Notes: a model not told the origin generated them from the sequence alone. A DNA stretch of 64,000 nt from Candidatus Heimdallarchaeum aukensis (GCA_021513695.1 CP084166.1:2432001-2496000); one strand, 5' to 3'. Shown: positions 9,790 through 32,669, counted from the first letter of the stretch. Made by a program: numbers and translations.

Positions 9790-10263
9790 CTATATTTTTT
9801 TACTTTTATTTTTTTTATATTTTAGAATTGTTTGTTTTACCCAATTTTCGACCTCTTGATCATTTAACAATTCGTCACAATAATCCCAATATTCTCCTGC
9901 TAAAAGTCCCATCAGAGCAATTTTTTTGAATTTGCTAGGTTTTTTTGGTGTCAATACAAACAAGAAAAGGTATCTTGCTGCTTTATTTCTTATTTTTTTA
10001 ATATCTACATTATCTGAAAAAATTATTTCCTCATCTCGTATAGTTACAGCAACATCAGCACTCATAGTAGTTAAATTAGCTATCTTAACTAAAGAGAGTA
10101 AAGCATAATTTCGTATCCAATCTATGCGAGAAAAAGTTAATGCATGGTGATAAAGAGAAGAAACACAACCATTTTTTATTAACTCTCGCATAGCTTGTTT
10201 CCTTGTTTTGTCTCCTGATGAAGGTCTTACAATTAACTCATCAAACTCTTTACAATTGTTCAT
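9790..10263 (-). CDS. hypothetical protein
   Basis: This 157-aa ORF is probably alpha-helical. No motif was found. Confidence 0.3.
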   Translation of the reverse strand: MNNCKEFDELIVRPSSGDKTRKQAMRELIKNGCVSSLYHHALTFSRIDWIRNYALLSLVKIANLTTMSADVAVTIRDEEIIFSDNVDIKKIRNKAARYLFLFVLTPKKPSKFKKIALMGLLAGEYWDYCDELLNDQEVENWVKQTILKYKKNKSKKI

Positions 10264-10314: not shown

Positions 10315-12492
10315 TTATTTTTTATATTCAAATTTTTCTGACACTCTAATGTCTCTAGATGAGAAACCTATAAGCAACTCAAATGTTCCTTCTTCTACTT
10401 TCCATTGATGTGATTGGGGGTCGTAGTATTGTAAATGTTCTCTGTTGAAATTAAACTGAATTTGTTTTTCTTCTCCTTCTTTAAGTGATATCTTAGCAAA
10501 ACCTTTTAGTTCCTTAAAGGGACGAATTAACGAGCAATCAACATCTCGAATATAAGCTTGAACCACAACTTTTCCACCTCTTTTCCCTGTGTTTCTAACC
10601 TTAAGTGTTGCTTGTATGGTTTCATTTCCTTTGAAACTTTTCTTGTTCAAAGTAAGGTTGTCACAATCAAAAGAAGTGAATGATAGACCATGACCGAACG
10701 GAAATTGGGGTTCTATATTCTGAGTATCGAAGTGTCTGTATCCTATCATTATTCCTTCCTTATAATTCATTGTTGTTGAAACAAAAAAGCGGTTTTTTTC
10801 TTTTGTATTTTGCTTTAAATGTTTAATTTTTTGATTAAGGTAGTCATCTGCATAATTTTTGACAGTAGAAAAGTCATTCCATCTCTTTGCCATTGTGAAA
10901 GGAAGTTTGCCTGAAGGGTTAACTTTTCCTAAAATAACTTCTGCTACAGGAATTGCTGCATTTTGCCCAAGGTAAAAACTGTGAATAATAGCTTCGACTG
11001 AGTTTAACCAACTTTCAGTTTCAAATCCTCCTCCAGCATTTACTACTACGATTATTTGTTTATTCAGTTCTGCTACTTTTTTGATCAATTTGGATTGATT
11101 TTGAACAAATTCCCAAGGTCTATCTAACGTTTCTGTTTCTTCCCATTCAGTAAAACCTGTACAAATAATAACTTTATCTGCTTCTTTTATTAGCTGTTGA
11201 TCCTTTTTTGTGATCTTATCTCTGTTTGACTTAATTGGAATAAAGTTGATGTTTGGAGCTAATTCCACTAGAGCTTCAAAAATACTCTTAGAATTAGGCA
11301 CATGAACATAGCATGACCCTCCTCCACTTGTGGGTGTTTTAAATGCGTTTCTTCCCAAAACAGCTATATTCTGTTCTTTCAGTGCATCAATTGGAAGACT
11401 ATTTATTTCATTTTTTAGCAAGACAATACTCTCTCTTGCAATTTCAAGGGCGATTTCATTATTTTTTTCTATCAAACTTTCAAAGTTTATTTTTTCTTTT
11501 CTCCTTCCGTATACACCCATTTCGAAAAATACTTTGAGGATATTTCTAACTTTAGAGTCAATCTCATCAAAGGAAGAAATGTTAGTACTCATGTGTTTCT
11601 TTTGTAAGTAATTAAGAATCTTTGTAACTGTGTAATGTTTAGCTTCTGGCATTTCAATATCTAAACCAGCTTCTAATGGTCCTTCAGTACTATAAACCGA
11701 ATCCCAATCAGATATTATAATTCCATCAAATTTCCACTTATTTCGCAAAATTTCAGTAAGTAGTTCTTTGTTCTCACTACAATGAACTCCATTAACTAAA
11801 TTGTATGCAGACATAATAGCTTTGGCTTTTCCTTTTTGAACAGCAGCTTTGAAAGCTGGAAAATATATCTCGTGAAGAGTTCTTTCATCAATAATAACGT
11901 TAGTTGAATGTCTTTTGTATTCGGAGTTGTTTGCTACAAAGTGCTTAACTGTTGCTATAATGCCTGTTTCTTGTAATCCTTGGACATAAGGAACAACAAG
12001 CTCAGAAGCTAAAAAAGGATCTTCTCCCATATACTCAAAATTTCTTCCATTAGTAGGAACTCGATAAATATTTACTCCTGGACCAAGTAAAACAGATATG
12101 TCTTTTGCTCTACACTCCTCACCTATTGCCTTAGCAACTTTGAAAATCAAATCTCTATTCCAACTTGCAGTCATAGCTATCAATGATGGAAAAGCCGTTG
12201 ACCTTCCATAAGTTCGAATACCAGAAGACGCATCTGTAGTCCAGACACGAGGAAGTTTTAAACGTTCAACACCAGAAATAGCAAAAATTTCTTCTCCAGA
12301 AAGAAGATTTATTTTTTCATTAAGTGTTAATTTATTTATAAGATATTCAACTTTTTCTTCTGTTGTTTCGAGTGAAAAAAATTCCTGTTTTCTAATTTCT
12401 TCATTAAGTTTAATGTCAGGTTCAAGTTTCTGGCTGAAATCAGGAGGAGAAGTAAAGATATGGTGAAGTATAACTTTTAATAATTTGTTCAT
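10315..12492 (-). CDS. glycoside hydrolase family 3 beta-glucosidase (BglX-like) with C-terminal FnIII-like domain
   Basis: It carries GH3 signatures: KHFVANNSEYKRHSTNVIIDERTLHEIYFPAFKAAV, the catalytic-Asp region GIIISDWDSV, and a C-terminal beta-sandwich. Confidence 0.85.
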   Translation of the reverse strand: MNKLLKVILHHIFTSPPDFSQKLEPDIKLNEEIRKQEFFSLETTEEKVEYLINKLTLNEKINLLSGEEIFAISGVERLKLPRVWTTDASSGIRTYGRSTAFPSLIAMTASWNRDLIFKVAKAIGEECRAKDISVLLGPGVNIYRVPTNGRNFEYMGEDPFLASELVVPYVQGLQETGIIATVKHFVANNSEYKRHSTNVIIDERTLHEIYFPAFKAAVQKGKAKAIMSAYNLVNGVHCSENKELLTEILRNKWKFDGIIISDWDSVYSTEGPLEAGLDIEMPEAKHYTVTKILNYLQKKHMSTNISSFDEIDSKVRNILKVFFEMGVYGRRKEKINFESLIEKNNEIALEIARESIVLLKNEINSLPIDALKEQNIAVLGRNAFKTPTSGGGSCYVHVPNSKSIFEALVELAPNINFIPIKSNRDKITKKDQQLIKEADKVIICTGFTEWEETETLDRPWEFVQNQSKLIKKVAELNKQIIVVVNAGGGFETESWLNSVEAIIHSFYLGQNAAIPVAEVILGKVNPSGKLPFTMAKRWNDFSTVKNYADDYLNQKIKHLKQNTKEKNRFFVSTTMNYKEGIMIGYRHFDTQNIEPQFPFGHGLSFTSFDCDNLTLNKKSFKGNETIQATLKVRNTGKRGGKVVVQAYIRDVDCSLIRPFKELKGFAKISLKEGEEKQIQFNFNREHLQYYDPQSHQWKVEEGTFELLIGFSSRDIRVSEKFEYKK

Positions 12493-24113: not shown

Positions 24114-24145
24114 GACAGTTTAAACACTTTCAATAATTTTTTTGA

Positions 24146-24190
24146 ATCTATTCAAAATCTATTCAAAATCTATTCAAAATCTATTCAAAA
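24146..24190. repeat. 11-bp tandem repeat (atctattcaaa) x4, intergenic
   Basis: Four direct head-to-tail copies are visible in the sequence immediately downstream of 23817..24113. Confidence 0.8.
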
Positions 24191-24280
24191 TAAGCTTAAA
24201 AAATAAAAAAAATGATTGTTAGTTCCTTAAAACAATGTTTTAAGTTATTCTTATTCTATAATAAAAAAGATGATTTGTTA

Positions 24281-24415
24281 TTAATAACGATTATATCTTC
24301 TATTATTTTGTCTATGTTTTCTATAACAATCTTGACAATAGACGGGTCTTTCACCATCTGGTTTGAAAGGTACCTGTGCATTTTTTCCACAGTCATCACA
24401 AACGATGTCAAACAT
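24281..24415 (-). CDS. small zinc-ribbon protein (44 aa; CxxC-x17-CxxC), not in the ORF track
   Basis: My translation of the minus strand gives MFDIVCDDCGKNAQVPFKPDGERPVYCQDCYRKHRQNNRRYNRY, with ATG at 24415 and TAA at 24281-24283. The listed plus-strand ORF 24212..24493 is probably its antisense shadow. Confidence 0.45.
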   Translation of the reverse strand: MFDIVCDDCGKNAQVPFKPDGERPVYCQDCYRKHRQNNRRYNRY

Positions 24416-24896
24416 TTCACGATTGTCTATGTAATTTTCTCTACTCAATATATTTCACCGATTATTGATTGGTTATACTTGAAAGTTCATTAGGATCCAA
24501 AAAATAGTTGAGACTAATTTAATGATTCTAAAAGTGAACTACAAATATACTAAGTTAATGAAATATATGTAGTATTTAAATTCTAGGTTTGAACTCAAGA
24601 ATTATTTATTTGATTTAAACTCAAAGTAAAAAGTCCTTCTAAACTTTCAAAGTTACTCTTATTGTTATTCTTAATGCTTTATTTTTCTTTTTTATCTGTT
24701 TTCTAGTCATATAATTTTTTTATCAAGACACATTTGTATTTGAAAAAAGAGAACTTTTTTTACATTAGTAGGAGAACTAACATTTTATTGATAAATTCTT
24801 GGATTATATATTAGCAAAAAATAATTATAAAAAAAACAGATTTTTCTACAATTTTCTTTAAATTTCAAAATCTATTTAAGTGAAAATGCATTCTTT

Positions 24897-25166
24897 TTGT
24901 TAGTACAATTGGTGAGTAAAGTGGATAGTTCTGATTCTTCTATTATAGTTGAAAAAATTAAAAAAGAAATAAATAGTTATGAATCTTCGAGGGCGAAAGG
25001 AAAAAAACTTATTTTTGAGAAATCTACTCCTGAACTTCTAAATAGTTTAGTACAGTTTCTAAATGATTTTTTTGATAAGTATTCTAAAACAGAAAAAGTA
25101 GAAGAAATTAACGAATTTGTCGATCATCTATATTCTACATTAAGGTGGAAGAAAAATGATTACTAG
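24897..25166 (+). CDS. small hypothetical protein, first gene of a three-gene operon (overlaps the next start by 11 nt)
   Basis: This 89-aa charged alpha-helical protein is translationally coupled to the Rad50-like ATPase gene. Confidence 0.35.
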   Translation: MLVQLVSKVDSSDSSIIVEKIKKEINSYESSRAKGKKLIFEKSTPELLNSLVQFLNDFFDKYSKTEKVEEINEFVDHLYSTLRWKKNDY

Positions 25167-26982
25167 TGTAAGCGTGAAAAATTGGAAAAAGTTTGATCAA
25201 CAAAAAGAATGGACTTTTGATAAAGGAATCCAACTTATTTATGGTCCTAACACAAGCGGTAAATCTTCTCTCCTCGAAGCTATCTATTTTGCTTTTTTTG
25301 GAGTAAATGAGAAGGTAGATGGAAACCCTACTTATAATTCGAATGAATCTGCAATTGTAACTGTTGATTTCATCTCTGATACTGGAGATAAGTATAGAAT
25401 AATCAGGAGTTATAAGAAAATTAAAAGAAAAGAAGAATCTTTTACACTTTACAAATTGGTTGATGGAAAAGAGGAGTTTTTCTCTGAAAACCCTCAAGAT
25501 GCAATTAAACTCTACGGAAAATTTGAAGATATTTTTACTCACATAATTTTTCTAAAAGAAGGAGAAATATACAGAACGCTATCGCGGATGAAAAGTAACT
25601 TAGATGAAGAACTATCCTATTTGTTGAACTTACAACGATTTGACGTTCTTCGTGAGAAATTGAGAGAAACAAGACTTAAGGTAATTAAGAAACAGAAAGA
25701 AAGTGTAAAGAAAGATCCAGCGTATTTGTCTGAAAAAGAGATAAACGAGTTTAAAGAGAAGTTGCATAGTCTAAATAATGAAAAAGAGAAGTTGGAAGGA
25801 AAGAAAAAGAAAGTAATCCACGATAAGAAACTTGCTGAGAAAAGATTTTCATTAAATAAAAAGTTGAAAGAGCTTGATTCTGAAAAACAAAAATATGGTG
25901 AAACAATAAAAAATATTAGAACCAAGTATGAAAATAAAGAATCTTTGATTGATTTTTTGAACAATGAAATTGCGGTATTAGAAAATAAAAATGAACAGTT
26001 AGATATAAAATGTTCTAAACTTAGCAGCGAAAAAGCTGAAAAAGAAGGAGAAAAAAGGAGACTAAATAAATTAATTAATGAAATTAACTCATTCAAATCT
26101 TCTGGAACTACCACATGTCCTACTTGTTATCAAAAAGTCGACCCTATGATTCTTCAAGAAGCTATTGAGGGTTTCAGCAAAAAAGTTAAAGATTTAGAAA
26201 ATGCATTGTTTCAACTTAATTCTTCCATAAATGAAATTAATGAAGAAAAGAGAATAATCTCTCAAAAGATAAGGGAAATTAAAGAAGACTTATTTGATCT
26301 TGAAAATGCTAAAAAAGGAATCAGTTTCATTCAACAGGAGATAAATGAGATAAACAATTATCTAAACTCACTTCCCCACACTGAAAATATTGAAAATTAT
26401 TCAATGCAGATAGAAGATCTAGAAGACGAAATAAGTAACATTAATGTGGAAATAAGAACAGTAGAGAAAAAGTTGAGTTCAAGTAAACAAGAAGGGATAA
26501 TGATTGACGAGTTAGAATTTCAAGAAAAGTTTATTGAATTAGTTGAAAATAAACTGAGTGAATATAAAGATGAGTTGCTTGAAAGAAAATTAAATGAAAT
26601 TAAAGGAGTAATAAAAGAAAAATGGGCAGAAATATGGGATAAAGAAATTTGGTCCATAGAATTTGATGACAATTTAGTTCCTACAATTAGCTTTAAGTAT
26701 AAAGGAACAACTATTCAACAAAATTTGCGCAGTTTTTCAGCGAGTGAAAAAATACTTTTAAGTGTCATTTTACGCGCTGCTTTAATTGATAAACTTTTAA
26801 GCGTAAAAACAATGATTCTAGATGACCCCTCAATCTTTTTAGACCAAGAAAGTGTTAAAATTGCTGCTCGATTCTATCGTGAACTTATAGATAATAAACA
26901 TGTGGATCAGATAATTATGACCACATTTGATGAATCTTTCAAAGAATTATTAAAACCTGAAAAAGTGATAAACCTTGAGTAA
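25156..26982 (+). CDS. Rad50/SbcC-like SMC-family ATPase with central CxxC zinc hook
   Basis: It has Walker A GPNTSGKSS, a long coiled coil with CPTC at its midpoint (about residue 310 of 608), an ABC signature-like FSASEKILLSVIL and Walker B/D-loop TMILDDPSIFLD. The H-loop His appears to be missing (QIIMTTFDE). Confidence 0.75.
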   Translation: MITSVSVKNWKKFDQQKEWTFDKGIQLIYGPNTSGKSSLLEAIYFAFFGVNEKVDGNPTYNSNESAIVTVDFISDTGDKYRIIRSYKKIKRKEESFTLYKLVDGKEEFFSENPQDAIKLYGKFEDIFTHIIFLKEGEIYRTLSRMKSNLDEELSYLLNLQRFDVLREKLRETRLKVIKKQKESVKKDPAYLSEKEINEFKEKLHSLNNEKEKLEGKKKKVIHDKKLAEKRFSLNKKLKELDSEKQKYGETIKNIRTKYENKESLIDFLNNEIAVLENKNEQLDIKCSKLSSEKAEKEGEKRRLNKLINEINSFKSSGTTTCPTCYQKVDPMILQEAIEGFSKKVKDLENALFQLNSSINEINEEKRIISQKIREIKEDLFDLENAKKGISFIQQEINEINNYLNSLPHTENIENYSMQIEDLEDEISNINVEIRTVEKKLSSSKQEGIMIDELEFQEKFIELVENKLSEYKDELLERKLNEIKGVIKEKWAEIWDKEIWSIEFDDNLVPTISFKYKGTTIQQNLRSFSASEKILLSVILRAALIDKLLSVKTMILDDPSIFLDQESVKIAARFYRELIDNKHVDQIIMTTFDESFKELLKPEKVINLE

Positions 26983-28579
26983 AACTAAATTTTTATTCGT
27001 TTTTGACACTTCTTTTTTTTGGTCTCTTTTAAATGTTAATCGGCATCAATTGATCCAAGATATTAAAGAAGTATTTGACTATGTTCCAAATATTCAATAT
27101 ATTGCTCCCAAAGTGATTTTAAAGGAACTATCTGGAAAATATAAAGATAAATGTCCTTTTCTAGAGCGGCATATTCAATTTACAGACATTGAAATTACAG
27201 AGGAGGAATTAAAAGAACTTAAAAAATTGAATAGTTCCTTGCCTAATCATGCATTTGAGAGAAAGGAAAAAGGTGATTACATAATAATTAACACTGCAAA
27301 AAAGTATGATGATTCAGAAGCAGTCAAATTTGTTGTAAGTAATGACGAGGGAATTCATCTGTTTCTTGATCAAGCTATCCCAGAAGAGAAAATAAAACCA
27401 ATCTGGGTAGCTAGATTTTTATCCTTTTTAGCCAAACAATCCTTAACTAAAAACCAAAAACGAAGGTTTACTCAAGCATCTGAAATGCTAGAAGAATATA
27501 TTGATACTTATCGTATAAAATCAAAGAGAGGAGAAACACCCTTTTACGATATAGAAAAAATACTAATGTCAGCTAAATTTTTACCTGCTGAAGAACAAAT
27601 TAATAGATTGCAAGAAGCTCTAGAAAATCAGATAATTACAGGAGAAAAAAGTGATACACTTCCTTCTTTTATTAATCAAATAGGCTCAAAACTGCATCAA
27701 ATCTTTTCCTATATAGATTTAGGTGAAACAAATGTTATTGAATCTCAACTCGAATCTGTAGAAGTAATAATTATGAATTTAAGTTTAGAGCAACGAGAGA
27801 CAGTTTACAAAATTATCAGTTTTTACCTGATTACAATTTTAAATCGGTTAGCTTCAATTTATGACCAAAATGGAGCTTTTTCTGGAATTGTTTCTGCATT
27901 AGAAAGAGCAAAGTTTTACTTAAAATATGTTGATGAATATGAAGACAAAAGTCAACTTTATGCAATTTTAAGTTGGATACACCTATTAAATAATTCAAAC
28001 GATTTATCACGGTATTATTTTTCAAAGGTAACAGATAAAAACTTTGAACTAGCAAAGAAACTAACAGCGTTGTTGGAACTGTATGATACTCCATTGGCAA
28101 AGATCGATACAAGATTGTATGAACTAGTTCCATCAGAAACTTGGAAAAACCTTAACGAAACACTAGCTATCTGTCCCAATAGACTACTACGAGAGAAAAT
28201 AGCCTATATTGTGAATACCTTTGAAATAAAACCCTCATTTGTTTTTGATGCAAGGCATTTTAATTTAAAAAATATGGAAATAAAAGAAAACTCTTTGCTT
28301 TCATTTCTAAAAGAGCAGTTTAGAATATTGAATATAATAAAAAAAGAAAGTTCAGTAGTAATTGAGTGTCATGACAGTAAAATAGGTCAAATTGAACTTC
28401 GTTTGCCTATCATCAGGACTATACTTAAAGTGTCACCTGGTGATTTAATAAGCTTTAGAGGGGGAACAATAGCAAAAATAAAGAAACCAAGTCCTGGAAA
28501 AAAACATTCTGCAACAATATATTTCAGTAAATTAGAAGAAGATGATTGTATTATTTCAAAAGATAGTAAACTGATTTAG
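26975..28579 (+). CDS. PIN-domain protein (N-terminal ~130 aa) with a large uncharacterised C-terminal region
   Basis: It starts on TTG and overlaps the upstream stop by 8 nt. It has PIN-like acidic residue spacing: FVFDTSFF (D8), ILKELSG (E~50), KGDYIIINTAKKY (D~102), VVSNDEGIHLF (D~124). Confidence 0.5.
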   Translation: MSKTKFLFVFDTSFFWSLLNVNRHQLIQDIKEVFDYVPNIQYIAPKVILKELSGKYKDKCPFLERHIQFTDIEITEEELKELKKLNSSLPNHAFERKEKGDYIIINTAKKYDDSEAVKFVVSNDEGIHLFLDQAIPEEKIKPIWVARFLSFLAKQSLTKNQKRRFTQASEMLEEYIDTYRIKSKRGETPFYDIEKILMSAKFLPAEEQINRLQEALENQIITGEKSDTLPSFINQIGSKLHQIFSYIDLGETNVIESQLESVEVIIMNLSLEQRETVYKIISFYLITILNRLASIYDQNGAFSGIVSALERAKFYLKYVDEYEDKSQLYAILSWIHLLNNSNDLSRYYFSKVTDKNFELAKKLTALLELYDTPLAKIDTRLYELVPSETWKNLNETLAICPNRLLREKIAYIVNTFEIKPSFVFDARHFNLKNMEIKENSLLSFLKEQFRILNIIKKESSVVIECHDSKIGQIELRLPIIRTILKVSPGDLISFRGGTIAKIKKPSPGKKHSATIYFSKLEEDDCIISKDSKLI

Positions 28580-28732
28580 CATTGTTTCTATTCATTCACT
28601 ATCGAATTATTTTACTTTGGAAAGAATAAGATGTAATGCAATAAATTATGCAGACTTAAAAAATAACATGCGTGTTTGCAATCATTTAAAATATACTTAT
28701 ATACTCTCTTTAAAAGAACACATGATGCATAT

Positions 28733-31075
28733 ATGCGGATAAAAGTTAGGAATATATTATTAATCTTTTTAATAGTTGTTGGAAGTATATACGTTTCCAA
28801 CATAGCAAATTCTAATATTGAAGGAACAAATATTATAATAACGGAAGTATTATATGATGCTCCTAATTCTGATTCGACTGAAGAGTGGATAGAATTATAC
28901 AACCCTACAGATCAAATTATTTCTATAGACAATTGGATAATTGAAGACAATTATGACTCTTTTACTCTTACAGGAACTTTAGATGCCTATGGATATTTTG
29001 TTATTGCTAAACAATCCTCTGCGTTCAATAGTTTATACGGCTTTAACCCTGATTTGGATGGGATGACGTTAGCTTTGAGTAACTCTGGAGATCAAGTAAG
29101 ACTCAGTGATAATACAGGAGCTGAAGTAGATTTTGTGGCTTGGGAAAATTATGTAAGCGGATGGTCTGTTTCTGCAGTAGATGCTACAATCAGAAGAATA
29201 ACAGCAACAGATACTGATTCTGGTTCTGATTGGGAAAATAGTGGCAGTTTGGGTGATCCTGGAACAGGAAGTTATAGTTCGGGGGGAGAAGATACCACCC
29301 CTCCTACAGTCACTATTACAAGTCCAATAGATGGAGCTACAGTCTATGGGACTGTTCAAATAACTGTTGATGCCACGGATGCAAATGGTATCTCAAGTTA
29401 TGAGATCTACATCGATAATGTTCTAAGAGCTACTTCGTCTTCTTATTCTTGGGATACAACGGTAGAAGAAGATGGAAGCCACACGATCGTTGCTAAAGCC
29501 CAAGACCCATCTGGAAATTGGGGTGAAGATACTATTACCGTTAACGTCGACAACACGAACCCTCCTCCTTCTCCTCCAAGTGATTATGCTAAAATAATGA
29601 CATATAATATAGAACAGAGTGGACTTGATCCAGATTGGAAACAAGTAGTAAAAGAAGAAAATCCCGATATTGTTATTTTCGTAGAAACAGGAACTTGGGA
29701 TGATAACAATAACGAGCTTCTAAATCAGTATGTTAATGAGTTTAATAGTTATTTTGTCGATGAAGCACCCTATGTAGGATATACAGCTCAGGATATAACT
29801 TATTCTACAAGTGGAGAAGCAATAATGAGCAGATATCCCATAATAGAGAATACTCAGATACCAATTGTATCATTAGATGATGGTTCCAGTTATGATGTTA
29901 CCCATGATTTTATGTCGTGGAAGGTAAATATCAGTGGAACACCAGTATATATTATTGGTGCTCATCTTAAGGCAAGCTCAGGCTCTGATAATGAATGGAG
30001 AAGAGAACGTGAACAAGAAGGAATCATTAATTATATGGATAGTTTGGGAGAAGTACCTATAATCTACATGGGTGATCTTAACTCTTTTTCTCCAGAAGAT
30101 ACAGGAGACTTAGCACCTTTAGGAGATTTAGGTTATGGTCCAATGACAATGACTATTTGGCCTGATGATCCAACTTATGGACAATATTCTTCGCAAAATC
30201 ATCTTTTCACTGATGTTTTCAGAACCCTCAATCCTACAGAACCAGGATACACCTATGGACACCAAGATCCTCAATACAAATCAAGAATCGATTATATAGT
30301 AGTGAATGATCACTTGGATGACTTCTTAATCAATTCAACCGTGGGAGATACACCTACAGCTGATACTGGTTCTGATCATTACTGTGTGGATATGTTCATT
30401 GATGTTGCAGCTCTTAATAATGGTGCTCCACCTGATACAACTCCACCTGCAAAGGTTACAGATCTAACTGCTACGCCCATTAGTTCCTCTCAAATTGATT
30501 TATCTTGGACCGCAAACACTGAAGGAGATCTAAGCTACTATAAAATTTATAGAGATGGAGTATTTATTGCTCAAACAACTACAACAGATTACAGTGATAC
30601 AGGATTAGAACCTTCTACAACTTATACATATGAGGTTTCTGCAGTAGATACAAGCAATAACGAAGGAGTGAAATCTGACCCTGTTTCTGCTACAACGGAT
30701 TCAGTAACAACAGAAACAATACATGTAGATAGTATTGTAACAGGACTGTATGTTGGTAGAAAAGATCCTGTTTTTACTGAAACAAATTCCTTCCAGCCTA
30801 AAGATATAGTGATAATACGTGTAAAAATAGTTGATTCCAATGGTATAGCTGTTGAAGGAGTCTCTGTAACTATAACAATTACTGACTCTGAAGGAGATGT
30901 AGTAACACTAACATCAACAACTGACAGCCAAGGTATCGCAGAGTTTTCCTACAGATTAAGTCCAAGAGCTCCTCTAGGTACATATACAATAAATGTAACT
31001 GATGTAAGCTTAAGTGGATATACTTATGATCCTACAGCAAATGTAGTTTCAAGTGTTGATTTTACAGTTAGTTAA
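28733..31075 (+). CDS. secreted nuclease: lamin-tail domain (LTD) + endonuclease/exonuclease/phosphatase (EEP) domain + fibronectin-III + Ig-like domains
   Basis: The signal peptide MRIKVRNILLIFLIVVGSIYVS is followed by the LTD motif ITEVLYDAPNSDSTEEWIELYNPTD...GYFVIA. The EEP motifs are MTYNIEQ, IVIFVETG, GAHLKA and SDHYCV. The FN3 domain has DLSW...YKIYRDG. The listed ORF start 28676 is probably too far upstream, and I place the start at 28733. Confidence 0.8.
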   Translation: MRIKVRNILLIFLIVVGSIYVSNIANSNIEGTNIIITEVLYDAPNSDSTEEWIELYNPTDQIISIDNWIIEDNYDSFTLTGTLDAYGYFVIAKQSSAFNSLYGFNPDLDGMTLALSNSGDQVRLSDNTGAEVDFVAWENYVSGWSVSAVDATIRRITATDTDSGSDWENSGSLGDPGTGSYSSGGEDTTPPTVTITSPIDGATVYGTVQITVDATDANGISSYEIYIDNVLRATSSSYSWDTTVEEDGSHTIVAKAQDPSGNWGEDTITVNVDNTNPPPSPPSDYAKIMTYNIEQSGLDPDWKQVVKEENPDIVIFVETGTWDDNNNELLNQYVNEFNSYFVDEAPYVGYTAQDITYSTSGEAIMSRYPIIENTQIPIVSLDDGSSYDVTHDFMSWKVNISGTPVYIIGAHLKASSGSDNEWRREREQEGIINYMDSLGEVPIIYMGDLNSFSPEDTGDLAPLGDLGYGPMTMTIWPDDPTYGQYSSQNHLFTDVFRTLNPTEPGYTYGHQDPQYKSRIDYIVVNDHLDDFLINSTVGDTPTADTGSDHYCVDMFIDVAALNNGAPPDTTPPAKVTDLTATPISSSQIDLSWTANTEGDLSYYKIYRDGVFIAQTTTTDYSDTGLEPSTTYTYEVSAVDTSNNEGVKSDPVSATTDSVTTETIHVDSIVTGLYVGRKDPVFTETNSFQPKDIVIIRVKIVDSNGIAVEGVSVTITITDSEGDVVTLTSTTDSQGIAEFSYRLSPRAPLGTYTINVTDVSLSGYTYDPTANVVSSVDFTVS

Positions 31076-31217: not shown

Positions 31218-32669
31218 ATGGTTTCAATAACATTTTATGGTGCAATTAATGAAATAGGTGGAAATAAAATTCTTATAGAAGGAACCGAGACAAGAGTTTT
31301 CCTAGATTTTGGATTATGTTTTAATCGCTACGGGAATTATTTTTCGCCATATATTACTCCTCGACAAGGATTAAAATTAAAAGATTTTATAGAATTAAAG
31401 CTTTTACCTGATCTTGAAGGTTTATACAGACAAGATTTTGAACAACGTTTTCGAGAAAGTTCTAAAGAACCATTATTTGATGGTGTAGTGCTTTCTCATC
31501 CACATATTGATCATGCAGGATTTATTCCTTTTATACGTTCTGACATTCCTTTTTATGCTTCTGAGGGCTCATTAGCTATACTAAAGGCAATAGAACAGAC
31601 AAGTCAAGGATTTTACGAATTTTTAAAACTTAAAGAGAAGTTCAAAATAAGAGAAAGTAAAAGAGAAAAAGGTAAATATGTACGAGATAAAGATTCAAGT
31701 GTTCAAAGAGAAATTACTACTTTTAAATCAAGTTTTAAAATAGGTGAGTTCACCTTTCATCCTTTTTCTGTTGATCATTCTATTGTTGGTGCAACAGCTT
31801 ATGTAATTGAAACCTCTGAAGGAGCAGTTGTTTATACTGGAGATATACGTTTTCATGGAAGAAAATATGACTTAAGTTGGAAGTTTGTAGAAGAAGCAAG
31901 TAAATATGATCCAATCCTAATGATAACGGAAGGAACAAGAATTCACGAACAGACAACTGTGACAGAACTGCAACTAGAAGATAATTTAAAACGTATAATT
32001 AAAGAAATAAGCGGATTAGTAGTTGCTTCTTTTCCTGTAAGAGATTTTGATAGAATGCAATCTTTTGTTAATGCAGGAAAAGAAAATGGTAGAGAACTTG
32101 TAATAAGTACACGTCAAGCTTTTGCTTTGGATGTTTTAGAAAAAGAAAAAATAGATGATGTTCCTAATCTTGACGAAGTAAGAGTTTTTCTCCCCAGTAA
32201 AAGTTGGGGAATATATGATAATCCTAACTATCCCATTGAAATTCAAATGCAAGATTATTCCACATGGGAAAGAAAAATAATTGAAAAGTCATCTACAATT
32301 ACTGCTAATGAAATAAGAGAAGAGCAAGAAAGTTATATATTGAGAGTAGAACCTACAGAATTAAAATATTTGCTTGATATTAATCCAAAGATTGGTTCAA
32401 GATACATTCGCTCTTTGACAGAACCTGTTGATGAAGAAATGGAAATACAGCAACAAAAAATGGATAATTGGTTAAAATTCTTCAGTCTTTATCCTTACAA
32501 ACAACTACATTGCTCTGGTCATACATCTAGAAAAGAATTATTAGAAATGATAAATAAGATTAACCCCAAAAAAATTGTTCCAATACATACAGAGAATGCA
32601 AAAGATTTTATGAGTGCATTTGAGAAAGTTATGATAGTAGAAGAAGGAGTGAAAATAACTTTAAAATAG
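31218..32669 (+). CDS. beta-CASP family MBL-fold ribonuclease (archaeal RNase J / aCPSF-like)
   Basis: It has the MBL motif VLSHPHIDHAG, a beta-CASP-sized insertion and the C-terminal motif HCSGHTS (motif C His). Confidence 0.65.
   Translation: MVSITFYGAINEIGGNKILIEGTETRVFLDFGLCFNRYGNYFSPYITPRQGLKLKDFIELKLLPDLEGLYRQDFEQRFRESSKEPLFDGVVLSHPHIDHAGFIPFIRSDIPFYASEGSLAILKAIEQTSQGFYEFLKLKEKFKIRESKREKGKYVRDKDSSVQREITTFKSSFKIGEFTFHPFSVDHSIVGATAYVIETSEGAVVYTGDIRFHGRKYDLSWKFVEEASKYDPILMITEGTRIHEQTTVTELQLEDNLKRIIKEISGLVVASFPVRDFDRMQSFVNAGKENGRELVISTRQAFALDVLEKEKIDDVPNLDEVRVFLPSKSWGIYDNPNYPIEIQMQDYSTWERKIIEKSSTITANEIREEQESYILRVEPTELKYLLDINPKIGSRYIRSLTEPVDEEMEIQQQKMDNWLKFFSLYPYKQLHCSGHTSRKELLEMINKINPKKIVPIHTENAKDFMSAFEKVMIVEEGVKITLK

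Follow-up and report, generated by a model that had tools for sequence, protein, structure and literature searches.

What is the role of a Rad50-like ATPase whose gene is coupled to one for a PIN-domain protein and not to one for an Mre11-type nuclease? The question is raised by a three-gene locus (positions 24897 to 28579) in the Asgard archaeon Candidatus Heimdallarchaeum aukensis, within a 64,000-nucleotide stretch (GCA_021513695.1, CP084166.1:2432001-2496000) that we call the window and number from its first letter. To our knowledge, very little is known experimentally about either defence or genome maintenance in the Asgard archaea. The locus encodes a small protein (A), a Rad50-superfamily ATPase with a zinc hook (B) and a PIN-domain protein (C). 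The answer we favour, with a probability of about one half, is that A-B-C is an Asgard three-component sensor-effector conflict system, one that works like Lamassu and ABC-3C, is built from different parts, and is derived from archaeal Rad50.

Three overlapping genes under selection

The genes of the locus are as follows.

24897-25166, + strand: gene A, small protein, 89 amino acids (aa) counted from the TTG at 24897; stop codon TAG at 25164-25166.
25156-26982, + strand: gene B, Rad50-superfamily coiled-coil ABC ATPase, 608 aa; start codon ATG at 25156, stop codon TAA at 26980-26982.
26975-28579, + strand: gene C, PIN / helical-repeat / beta-barrel protein, 534 aa; TTG start.

All three open reading frames lie on the + strand, with an overlap of 11 nucleotides (nt) between A and B and of 8 nt between B and C. 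An earlier reading of this DNA (the original prediction) had described a translationally coupled operon with these overlaps and a TTG start, and its coordinates hold. TTG 26975 is the true start of C, because the first strand of the protein, FLFVFDTS, which carries the first catalytic Asp, lies directly 3' of it, and because the junction TTGANTRA, with its TTG start and 8-nt overlap, recurs in Ca. Heimdallarchaeum endolithica and in loci L006 and L011. At L008 the corresponding overlap is 14 nt.

The nearest complete relative is H. endolithica (CP084167), with 83% protein identity for both B and C. Ratios of nonsynonymous to synonymous substitution (dN/dS) between the two species are 0.09 for B, 0.10 for C and 0.2-0.5 for the short gene A; B and C are thus under strong purifying selection (dN/dS about 0.1), and the values identify all three as functional genes. 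Orthologues at 35-43% identity are present in several metagenomes, which argues against chance reading frames. No second paralogue exists in the window: tblastn of A, B and C against it returns only these genes themselves.

Relative to the window, the H. endolithica locus (L002) has one base fewer in a T7-T8 homopolymer at 9913-9916 (gene A) and again at about 11860-11875 (gene C), producing apparent frameshifts and a truncated 519-aa call for C that lacks the catalytic D11. Pseudogenisation was considered and rejected, as both frameshifts are single-base losses in T7-T8 runs inside otherwise well-conserved genes; most likely, they are assembly errors in the published complete genome.

B is a divergent member of the Rad50 superfamily

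Motifs in B were assigned by alignment with haloarchaeal Rad50.

25243-25269, + strand: Walker A GPNTSGKSS, aa 30-38; G, N, G, K, S and S kept by all clade members and by Rad50.
25636-26100, + strand: coiled-coil arm 1, aa 161-315; lag-7 heptad autocorrelation of 0.35; charged residues make up 49%, Pro and Gly together 2.6%.
26116-26139, + strand: zinc hook CPTCYQKV, aa 321-328 (C321, C324); aligns column for column with Rad50 CPECGQPV.
26146-26640, + strand: coiled-coil arm 2, aa 331-495; heptad autocorrelation of 0.35 (lag 7) and 0.25 (lag 14).
26734-26751, + strand: signature motif FSASEK, aa 527-532; Rad50 equivalent LSGGER.
26809-26844, + strand: Walker B and D-loop MILDDPSIFLD; catalytic Glu replaced by Asp (D557), Rad50 having ILDEP.
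26908-26934, + strand: H-loop region QIIMTTFDE; His replaced by F591, Rad50 having QILLVSHDE.

The description of B as a hook-bearing Rad50-like ATPase with Walker A, coiled coil, CPTC hook, SASEK signature and Walker B/D-loop is supported both by this alignment and by the heptad signal, the hydrophobic lag-7 autocorrelation being 0.35 in both arms versus 0.05-0.07 in the heads. The hook residues C, P, C and Q are invariant across all partner ATPases, and the D-loop FLD is retained in B. The original prediction had also noted that the H-loop His is missing; it had overlooked D557 in Walker B and a third replacement in the Q-loop, where B has KEGE and Rad50 has RQGE (Gln to Glu, E135). These changes extend across the clade of B-type ATPases: the Q-loop Gln is replaced by Glu, the Walker B Glu by Asp (hhhhDD in 8 of the 8 ATPases compared) and the H-loop His of Rad50 by Phe or Tyr in every member. 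As judged from the alignment, then, three residues needed for hydrolysis are replaced in B, and the ATP-binding residues are kept.

Profile libraries agree on the superfamily. Pfam matches (AAA_29, AAA_23 and SMC_N) cover only the N-terminal P-loop region. The best PADLOC model is LmuB PDLC03859 (111 bits, 1.8e-32, aligning B aa 2-601 to positions 5-594 of 611), although this model has no curated cutoff and the ASRP, Rad50 and SbcC models give similar scores. Among NCBIfam models, the best is ASRP, which aligns over the full length at 101 bits versus a cutoff of 300, and the Rad50 models reach 53-91 bits versus cutoffs of 700-1087. In PHROGs, B matches the SbcC-like phrog_77 at 102 bits. Because no curated cutoff is reached, we regard B as a divergent Rad50-superfamily protein that scores alone do not place in ASRP, LmuB or Rad50.

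Comparison with solved structures points to Rad50. The single B sequence matches only Rad50 heads in the PDB at E<=0.001. With a profile of six clade members, the best match is Methanocaldococcus jannaschii Rad50 (3e-43), next come the P. furiosus, T. maritima and eukaryotic Rad50 proteins, and then SMC and RecF. These matches suggest that B is derived from archaeal Rad50.

A more distant ASRP-like ATPase, P0013 (L004 1888-3952), is 19-21% identical to B and has the same hook, the Walker B DD and an H-loop Tyr. An unrelated 68-aa reading frame ends 1 nt before its start, but no PIN protein accompanies it; P0013/B-like ATPases may more widely have a small protein encoded upstream. When B and P0013 were searched against plasmids with tblastn, only canonical SbcCD, SMC and generic AAA proteins were found, and Halobacterium Sph1/Sph2 were not recovered.

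C carries a PIN domain with an intact acidic site

Protein C from the window matches no named family in the Pfam, NCBIfam or PADLOC family libraries, no PHROG, and no Pfam PIN model even at E<=1. An exhaustive profile search of 1.84 billion representative proteins yielded 19 relatives at E<=1e-3. Its predicted parts are these.

26975-27439, + strand: PIN nuclease domain, aa 1 to about 155; acidic residues D11, E51, D101 and D124.
27449-27574, + strand: long helix after the PIN core, aa 159-200 (helix 159-182 in the model); invariant R180 and R185 in YRxxxxR.
27587-28222, + strand: helical-repeat (TPR-like) region, aa 205-416, about 210 aa; moderate-confidence model.
28319-28558, + strand: C-terminal beta-barrel, aa 449-528; conserved KPxPG motif, one OB-fold match; moderate-confidence model.

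In 13-15 C-family sequences, down to about 20% identity, D11, D101, A108, V121, D124, G126, F148, R180 and R185 are invariant, and E51, E98 and E125 nearly so. Four of 13 N-terminal domains match Pfam PIN_4 (best 2.6e-6), others match PIN_12, PIN_5, PIN or DUF4411, and the full-length orthologue P0019 exceeds the PIN_4 gathering score (25.5 versus 21.9). PADLOC gives C and its distant relatives a sole match, to PDC-M07B (4.4e-4), on the PIN region. A model of whole C built from three sequences was poor in the PIN domain. When the domain was isolated and modelled with a 15-sequence alignment, the predicted local distance difference test (pLDDT) score was 91.6 and the predicted template modelling (pTM) score 0.90, and Foldseek matched this model to HARP and Rrp44 at probability 0.99-1.0. 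Given the quality of the isolated-domain model and these matches, the PIN assignment is right: as modelled, the N-terminal domain of C has a PIN fold with an intact acidic site. The non-PIN Rossmann-like fold that had been raised as a possibility is not what is found. The acidic spacing originally proposed also stands, except that the first Asp is D11 and not D8. The closest PIN structures are those of RNases (VapC, Dis3, HARP, Nob1 and Nmd4) and not FEN.

C resembles PIN_4, PIN_5 (HARP) and VapC proteins in its fold and four acidic residues, and its FxFDTS, xE, D[YF]xII and V[ST]xDEG segments align with HARP and PIN_4. It differs from them in that its PIN domain is joined to helical repeats and a beta-barrel of about 380 aa in all, with a family-specific YRxxxxR helix following the PIN domain, that it is genetically coupled to a Rad50-like ATPase, and that the window protein reaches no Pfam PIN cutoff. 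The roughly 400 aa that follow the PIN domain do lack a known function, as first described; the YRxxxxR helix may contact nucleic acid or a partner.

The PIN-plus-YRxxxxR-helix unit also occurs in a second architecture, at the C-terminal end of 590-729-aa proteins (P0020, P0021, P0023 and H. endolithica L007 8843-10612) in which the first 380-490 aa are without a Pfam match. In H. endolithica the copy, of 589 aa, lies 17 kb from the module; the window lacks it.

Pfam gives no Metallophos match for either A or C, consistent with the view that the partner of B is not a calcineurin-like phosphoesterase, and there is no second Rad50-like gene within the window. That the PIN partner stands "in place of" Mre11 is an analogy, since B does not qualify as a Rad50 proper.

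The module is conserved as a unit

The order small protein, ATPase, PIN protein is found in at least 11 loci, in which identity to the window proteins falls as low as 23-25% for B and 18-23% for C. Complete A-B-C modules of the window clade, with B 43-83% identical, occur in H. endolithica (L002), L008 and L011, and L001 has A-B-C at 32%, 43% and 42% identity. A contig end cuts the module to B-C in L006 (Heimdallarchaeota C4.bin.14) and to A-B in L010; L012 has A-B-C with B split. Three deep branches of the C family (P0025 in L014, P0028 in L015 and L016, and P0034 in L017) retain the order seen in the window, with a 77-89-aa protein, then a 608-611-aa SMC_N ATPase, then the C-type protein, and with small-protein/ATPase overlaps of 8, 11 and 4 nt. 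In the window clade and all three deep branches, the C-type gene is always 3' of the B-type ATPase. This shared order across divergent branches indicates that B and C co-diverged as a unit. The co-occurrence of the three genes is thereby confirmed down to about 20% identity, and a lack of conserved linkage to the PIN gene, which would have spoken for a generic chromosomal ATPase, is not what is seen.

The deep-branch ATPases share the features of B: a CP[TS]CxQ hook, a Q-loop Glu, a Walker B of the form hhhhDD, and an H-loop Phe or Tyr. Like B, they have LmuB PDLC03859 as their best PADLOC model, matched end to end (91-114 bits for the set). The ASRP model NF045487 gives 100-111 bits for close relatives of B and 73-83 bits, slightly below Rad50, for the deep-branch ATPases.

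The product of gene A is small, acidic to neutral and probably helical, and matches no family in Pfam, NCBIfam, PADLOC or PHROG. Orthologues lie directly 5' of the ATPase in L001 (32% identity) and in L008, L010, L011 and L012 (41-49%), and the deep-branch loci L014, L015 and L017 have a protein of 77-89 aa at that position. Because orthologues start near residue 12, the true start of A is probably GTG 24921, which is preceded by GGTGAG.

Among loci with informative flanks, the surroundings of the module differ, being common only to the window and H. endolithica. They include, by lineage, a leucine-rich-repeat protein with a flavodoxin, a SHOCT-like protein, a Fer4 protein, MarR with an abhydrolase, and DNA_alkylation with an MFS protein. 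Named family members come from Heimdallarchaeota, Ca. Freyarchaeum deiterrae and Sigynarchaeota; the module family is present in several Asgard lineages, in which it is rare and patchy. C-family members that lack an ATPase also exist (P0032 in L018, P0027 in L020 and a P0033-like protein in L009).

Some of these genes have defence genes as neighbours. In the complete genome of F. deiterrae (CP147778), P0032 is encoded 1.2 kb from a DISARM core (L018 7791-13746; DrmA 8e-233, DrmB 4e-68, DrmC 2e-34) and near a HEPN+MNT pair, a region that looks like an Asgard defence island. Around the module at L015 are genes for a PLD nuclease (DrmC-like, 9e-16), for an MNT+HepT pair and for a TnsA-like protein, and the relative at L009 adjoins an Mrr_cat-like protein (20.8 bits versus a cutoff of 21).

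Relationship to known Rad50-like systems

Lamassu systems, which protect by abortive infection against phages and plasmids and for which evolution from SbcCD has been proposed in the literature, contain LmuB, a Rad50-like protein of ~600 aa that in many cases has a hook. Its Walker B is devoid of the catalytic Glu, reading hhhhDD in long forms and hhhhD[QSTE] in short forms (PMC12663957; bioRxiv 10.1101/2025.03.14.643221). A small protein, LmuC, is encoded just 5' of lmuB, and LmuA joins an N-terminal effector domain to a C-terminal docking/oligomerisation domain. The parallels with our module are several. B has each of the features shared by the ATPases of Lamassu, ABC-3C and DdmABC, namely a length of ~600 aa, Rad50-like heads, short coiled coils and a CxxC hook; LmuB proteins as a whole span about 600-1000 aa, and not all of them carry the hook. 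Its Walker B, MILDD(P), lacks the catalytic Glu and fits the hhhhDD consensus of long LmuB (PMC12663957). A shares with LmuC its position directly 5' of the ATPase, and only that. C, with an N-terminal nuclease and a non-catalytic C-terminal part, is analogous to LmuA by architecture. B departs from LmuB in that the H-loop His and Q-loop Gln are replaced as well, and the host is an Asgard archaeon, whereas published archaeal Lamassu come from seven Euryarchaeota and Thaumarchaeota genomes.

ASRPs are archaeal proteins of ~600 aa with terminal Walker A and B motifs, a coiled coil and a zinc hook, and have been reported in Heimdallarchaeota (PMC9389158). Their distribution is patchy, an extrachromosomal origin has been suggested, and the Asgard genomes that bear them also have canonical Rad50-Mre11 (PMC9389158). 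B resembles this family (ClsN, Sph1/Sph2; NF045487) in being archaeal, in its size of ~600 aa, and in its terminal Walker motifs, antiparallel coiled coil and central hook. However, B misses the equivalog cutoff (101 versus 300 bits; 73-83 bits for the deep-branch partners), and the B clade has two conserved partner genes, whereas no conserved neighbour was found for ASRP genes (PMC9389158). Nor does anything in the B clade indicate a role as an essential chromosome organiser.

To Rad50-Mre11 and SbcCD, B is linked by a head sequence nearest to that of archaeal Rad50, by the hook CPxCxQxV, and by the placement of ATPase and nuclease in one operon. It is, however, shorter (608 aa versus about 880-1300 aa), has E135, D557 and F591 in place of the catalytic Gln, Glu and His, and misses all Rad50 NCBIfam cutoffs by about ten-fold; and its partner is a PIN protein, not a calcineurin-like phosphoesterase.

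A proposed sensor-effector conflict system

Because the module follows the same logic as Lamassu, a sensor-effector conflict system is the best single explanation of A-B-C. This explanation is supported by the Lamassu-like parts list, by LmuB as the best PADLOC model, by conservation of the unit amid varied flanks, by the sparse and patchy distribution, by defence neighbours (guilt by association), and by a PIN active site under selection. The complex formation, trigger, nuclease substrate and defence role that we infer could be put together as follows. B would dimerise through its zinc hook and bind ATP, hydrolysing it slowly or not at all, so as to act as a nucleotide-dependent switch or a sensor of DNA structure and not as a motor. 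Docked on B, A and the helical repeats and beta-barrel that form the non-catalytic part of C would keep the PIN nuclease inactive. Once B engages its trigger, for which DNA ends or replication intermediates from an invading element are the likeliest candidates, C would be released or re-arranged; its PIN domain would then cut nucleic acid, either RNA or DNA, and so halt the invader or the infected cell.

A number of observations weigh against this interpretation. By sequence comparison in PADLOC, C has no LmuA match, and neither A nor the deep-branch small proteins have an LmuC match, although LmuC families are so diverse that sequence tests are weak. The gene order is small-ATPase-effector in every locus, as opposed to effector-small-ATPase (lmuA-lmuC-lmuB) in Lamassu, and PIN is not among the Lamassu effectors listed in the literature that we consulted (PMC12663957). 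By sequence, the heads of the B clade are far closer to archaeal Rad50 than to any other solved structure (3e-43); LmuB, DdmC and SbcC are absent from the best 60 of 91 PDB profile matches, in a PDB copy whose Lamassu content was not verified. Within the ASRP family, ClsN is an essential chromosome organiser in Sulfolobus, a cellular precedent for short hook ATPases (PMC11344861). No relatives were found on viral contigs. Finally, the neighbours of the module in the window and in H. endolithica, whose synteny is shared, are housekeeping or metabolic genes (a DEAD helicase, an MBL protein, glycosidases), and the window locus is not a defence island.

That the B head is nearest to archaeal Rad50 suggests a derivation separate from Lamassu, and since A and C show no detectable homology to LmuC and LmuA, the gene order is different and the effector is a PIN protein, we class the module as a Lamassu-like variant and not as a member of Lamassu. 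The comparison with Lamassu-like and ABC-3C-like systems drawn in the original prediction is supported for B, for which LmuB is the best PADLOC model, and not for the other two proteins or the gene order.

Alternative explanations

The strongest competitor, though in our judgement an unlikely one, is housekeeping genome maintenance. B would be an ASRP/coalescin- or Rad50-like DNA tether and C its nuclease, as Mre11 is for Rad50, with the PIN domain cutting particular DNA structures (flaps or ends) during repair, the restart of replication or the organisation of chromosomes. ASRP is indeed the best NCBIfam model for B, over its full length, yet the score is a third of the cutoff and drops below that of Rad50 in the deep branches. 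ASRPs are likewise hook proteins of ~600 aa, occur in Heimdallarchaeota and include the essential ClsN of Sulfolobus (PMC9389158, PMC11344861), but their genes were reported to lack a conserved neighbour (PMC9389158). The B heads are nearest to archaeal Rad50; Rad50-type repair, however, requires ATP hydrolysis, and the Q-loop Gln, Walker B Glu and H-loop His are replaced clade-wide. Strong purifying selection favours this explanation, as does the position of the window locus amid housekeeping genes in a synteny common to H. endolithica. Set against these are a distribution that is very sparse for a core function, flanks that differ among most loci, some of them defence or mobile-element contexts, and nearest PIN structures that are RNases (VapC, Dis3, HARP, Nob1, Nmd4) and not FEN.

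Two other readings are less likely than the conflict-system and genome-maintenance readings. One, which we hold to be improbable, is RNA processing or surveillance, with C a PIN_4/HARP-like endoribonuclease equipped with TPR and OB-like modules that bind RNA or protein, and B a scaffold or regulator unrelated to DNA sensing. The PIN domain is best matched, in structure and in sequence, by RNA nucleases (HARP RNase P, Rrp44/DIS3L, Nob1, Nmd4, SMG6, Utp23/24 and VapC), and the ATPase-less members of the C family would fit such a role. A zinc-hook Rad50-like ATPase, however, takes part in no known RNA-processing pathway, and a core enzyme of RNA processing would not be so sparsely distributed; the DEAD-box helicase and beta-CASP RNase near the window module, which might also be cited, are not conserved in other lineages. 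Slimmer still is the case for a toxin-antitoxin-like addiction or selfish module, in which a PIN toxin held by A and/or B would stabilise a genomic island with no sensing of invaders: PIN domains of the VapC-like type are well-known toxins, a small protein encoded first and genes closely coupled in translation are reminiscent of toxin-antitoxin organisation, and the module moves between genomic contexts and is found near HEPN/MNT pairs, but a simple pair of this kind has no need of a coiled-coil ATPase of 608 aa whose hook and Walker A are conserved, A is unlike known VapB-type antitoxins (no family matches), and no plasmid or viral copies were found (tblastn against plasmids; viral contigs).

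Flanking features of the window locus

Two flanking features deserve mention, one on each side of the operon.

24865-24880, + strand: promoter-like element TCAAAATCTATTTAAG, containing the TATA-like TATTTAAG, about 20-45 nt 5' of gene A; conserved.
28676-31075: LTD-EEP protein, with LTD, Big_7, EEP nuclease/phosphatase, fn3 and MG2 domains; large, secreted or membrane-anchored.

An exact 12-mer upstream of A is kept at the equivalent site in H. endolithica (L002 9711-9722), where most of the 400-bp spacer has diverged, and the TCAAAATCTATTTAAG element may act as a promoter. Farther upstream, between the 3' ends of a 98-aa gene and the zf_Tbcl_2 gene, lies a perfect 11-bp tandem array of AATCTATTCAA (4.3 copies, window 24145-24191). 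The 12-mer TCAAAATCTATT is present inside this array, and a single further exact copy is found at 24865-24876, just 5' of gene A; that copy is conserved in H. endolithica and the array is not. TCAAAATCTATT may serve as a regulator site or a TATA-like site, or its recurrence may be coincidental. The zf_Tbcl_2 gene (1e-20), on the - strand at 24281-24448 and divergent from the operon, encodes a 55-aa treble-clef zinc-finger protein; it is present in H. endolithica and not at other module loci with a recovered upstream flank.

Downstream, a T-rich spacer of roughly 100-150 nt separates C from the LTD-EEP gene. The gene is real, as originally described, but its link to the module is not: in H. endolithica it is missing or reduced to a fragment, no other module locus has it, and we rejected it as a part of the system. 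At its position H. endolithica has only a 116-aa MG2 fragment, so the region directly 3' of C is variable between close relatives. The beta-CASP/MBL RNase gene beyond it is intact in the window (31218-32669, 483 aa); in H. endolithica (L002 14224-17265) a TnpB/Cas12f-like gene (434 aa, Cas12f1-like_TNB) interrupts it, leaving pieces of 146 and 249 aa.

Implications for Asgard biology

As a sensor-effector conflict system, the module would add a PIN nuclease class and a phylum-level Asgard host range to the Rad50/SMC-like systems of this kind. It would give a second example of Rad50 turned into a slow-ATPase switch, and would supply a genetic partner for part of the poorly understood ASRP/coalescin-like ATPases. 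The unit is compact and makes clear point-mutant predictions (K36 in B; D11, D101 and D124 in C), and hence is directly testable in a heterologous host.

A bolder proposal, which we advance tentatively and consider rather doubtful, is that A-B-C represents an immune or conflict system, Asgard-wide and not described before, whose origin is independent of bacterial Lamassu although the route was the same: an archaeal Rad50 would have become shorter, given up the residues needed for hydrolysis and acquired new partners, a PIN nuclease and a tiny adaptor. If true, this would be a second, convergent case of a DNA-repair machine becoming an immune sensor, and the short hook-bearing SMC-like proteins of archaea (the ASRP family, including coalescin) may descend from conflict modules.

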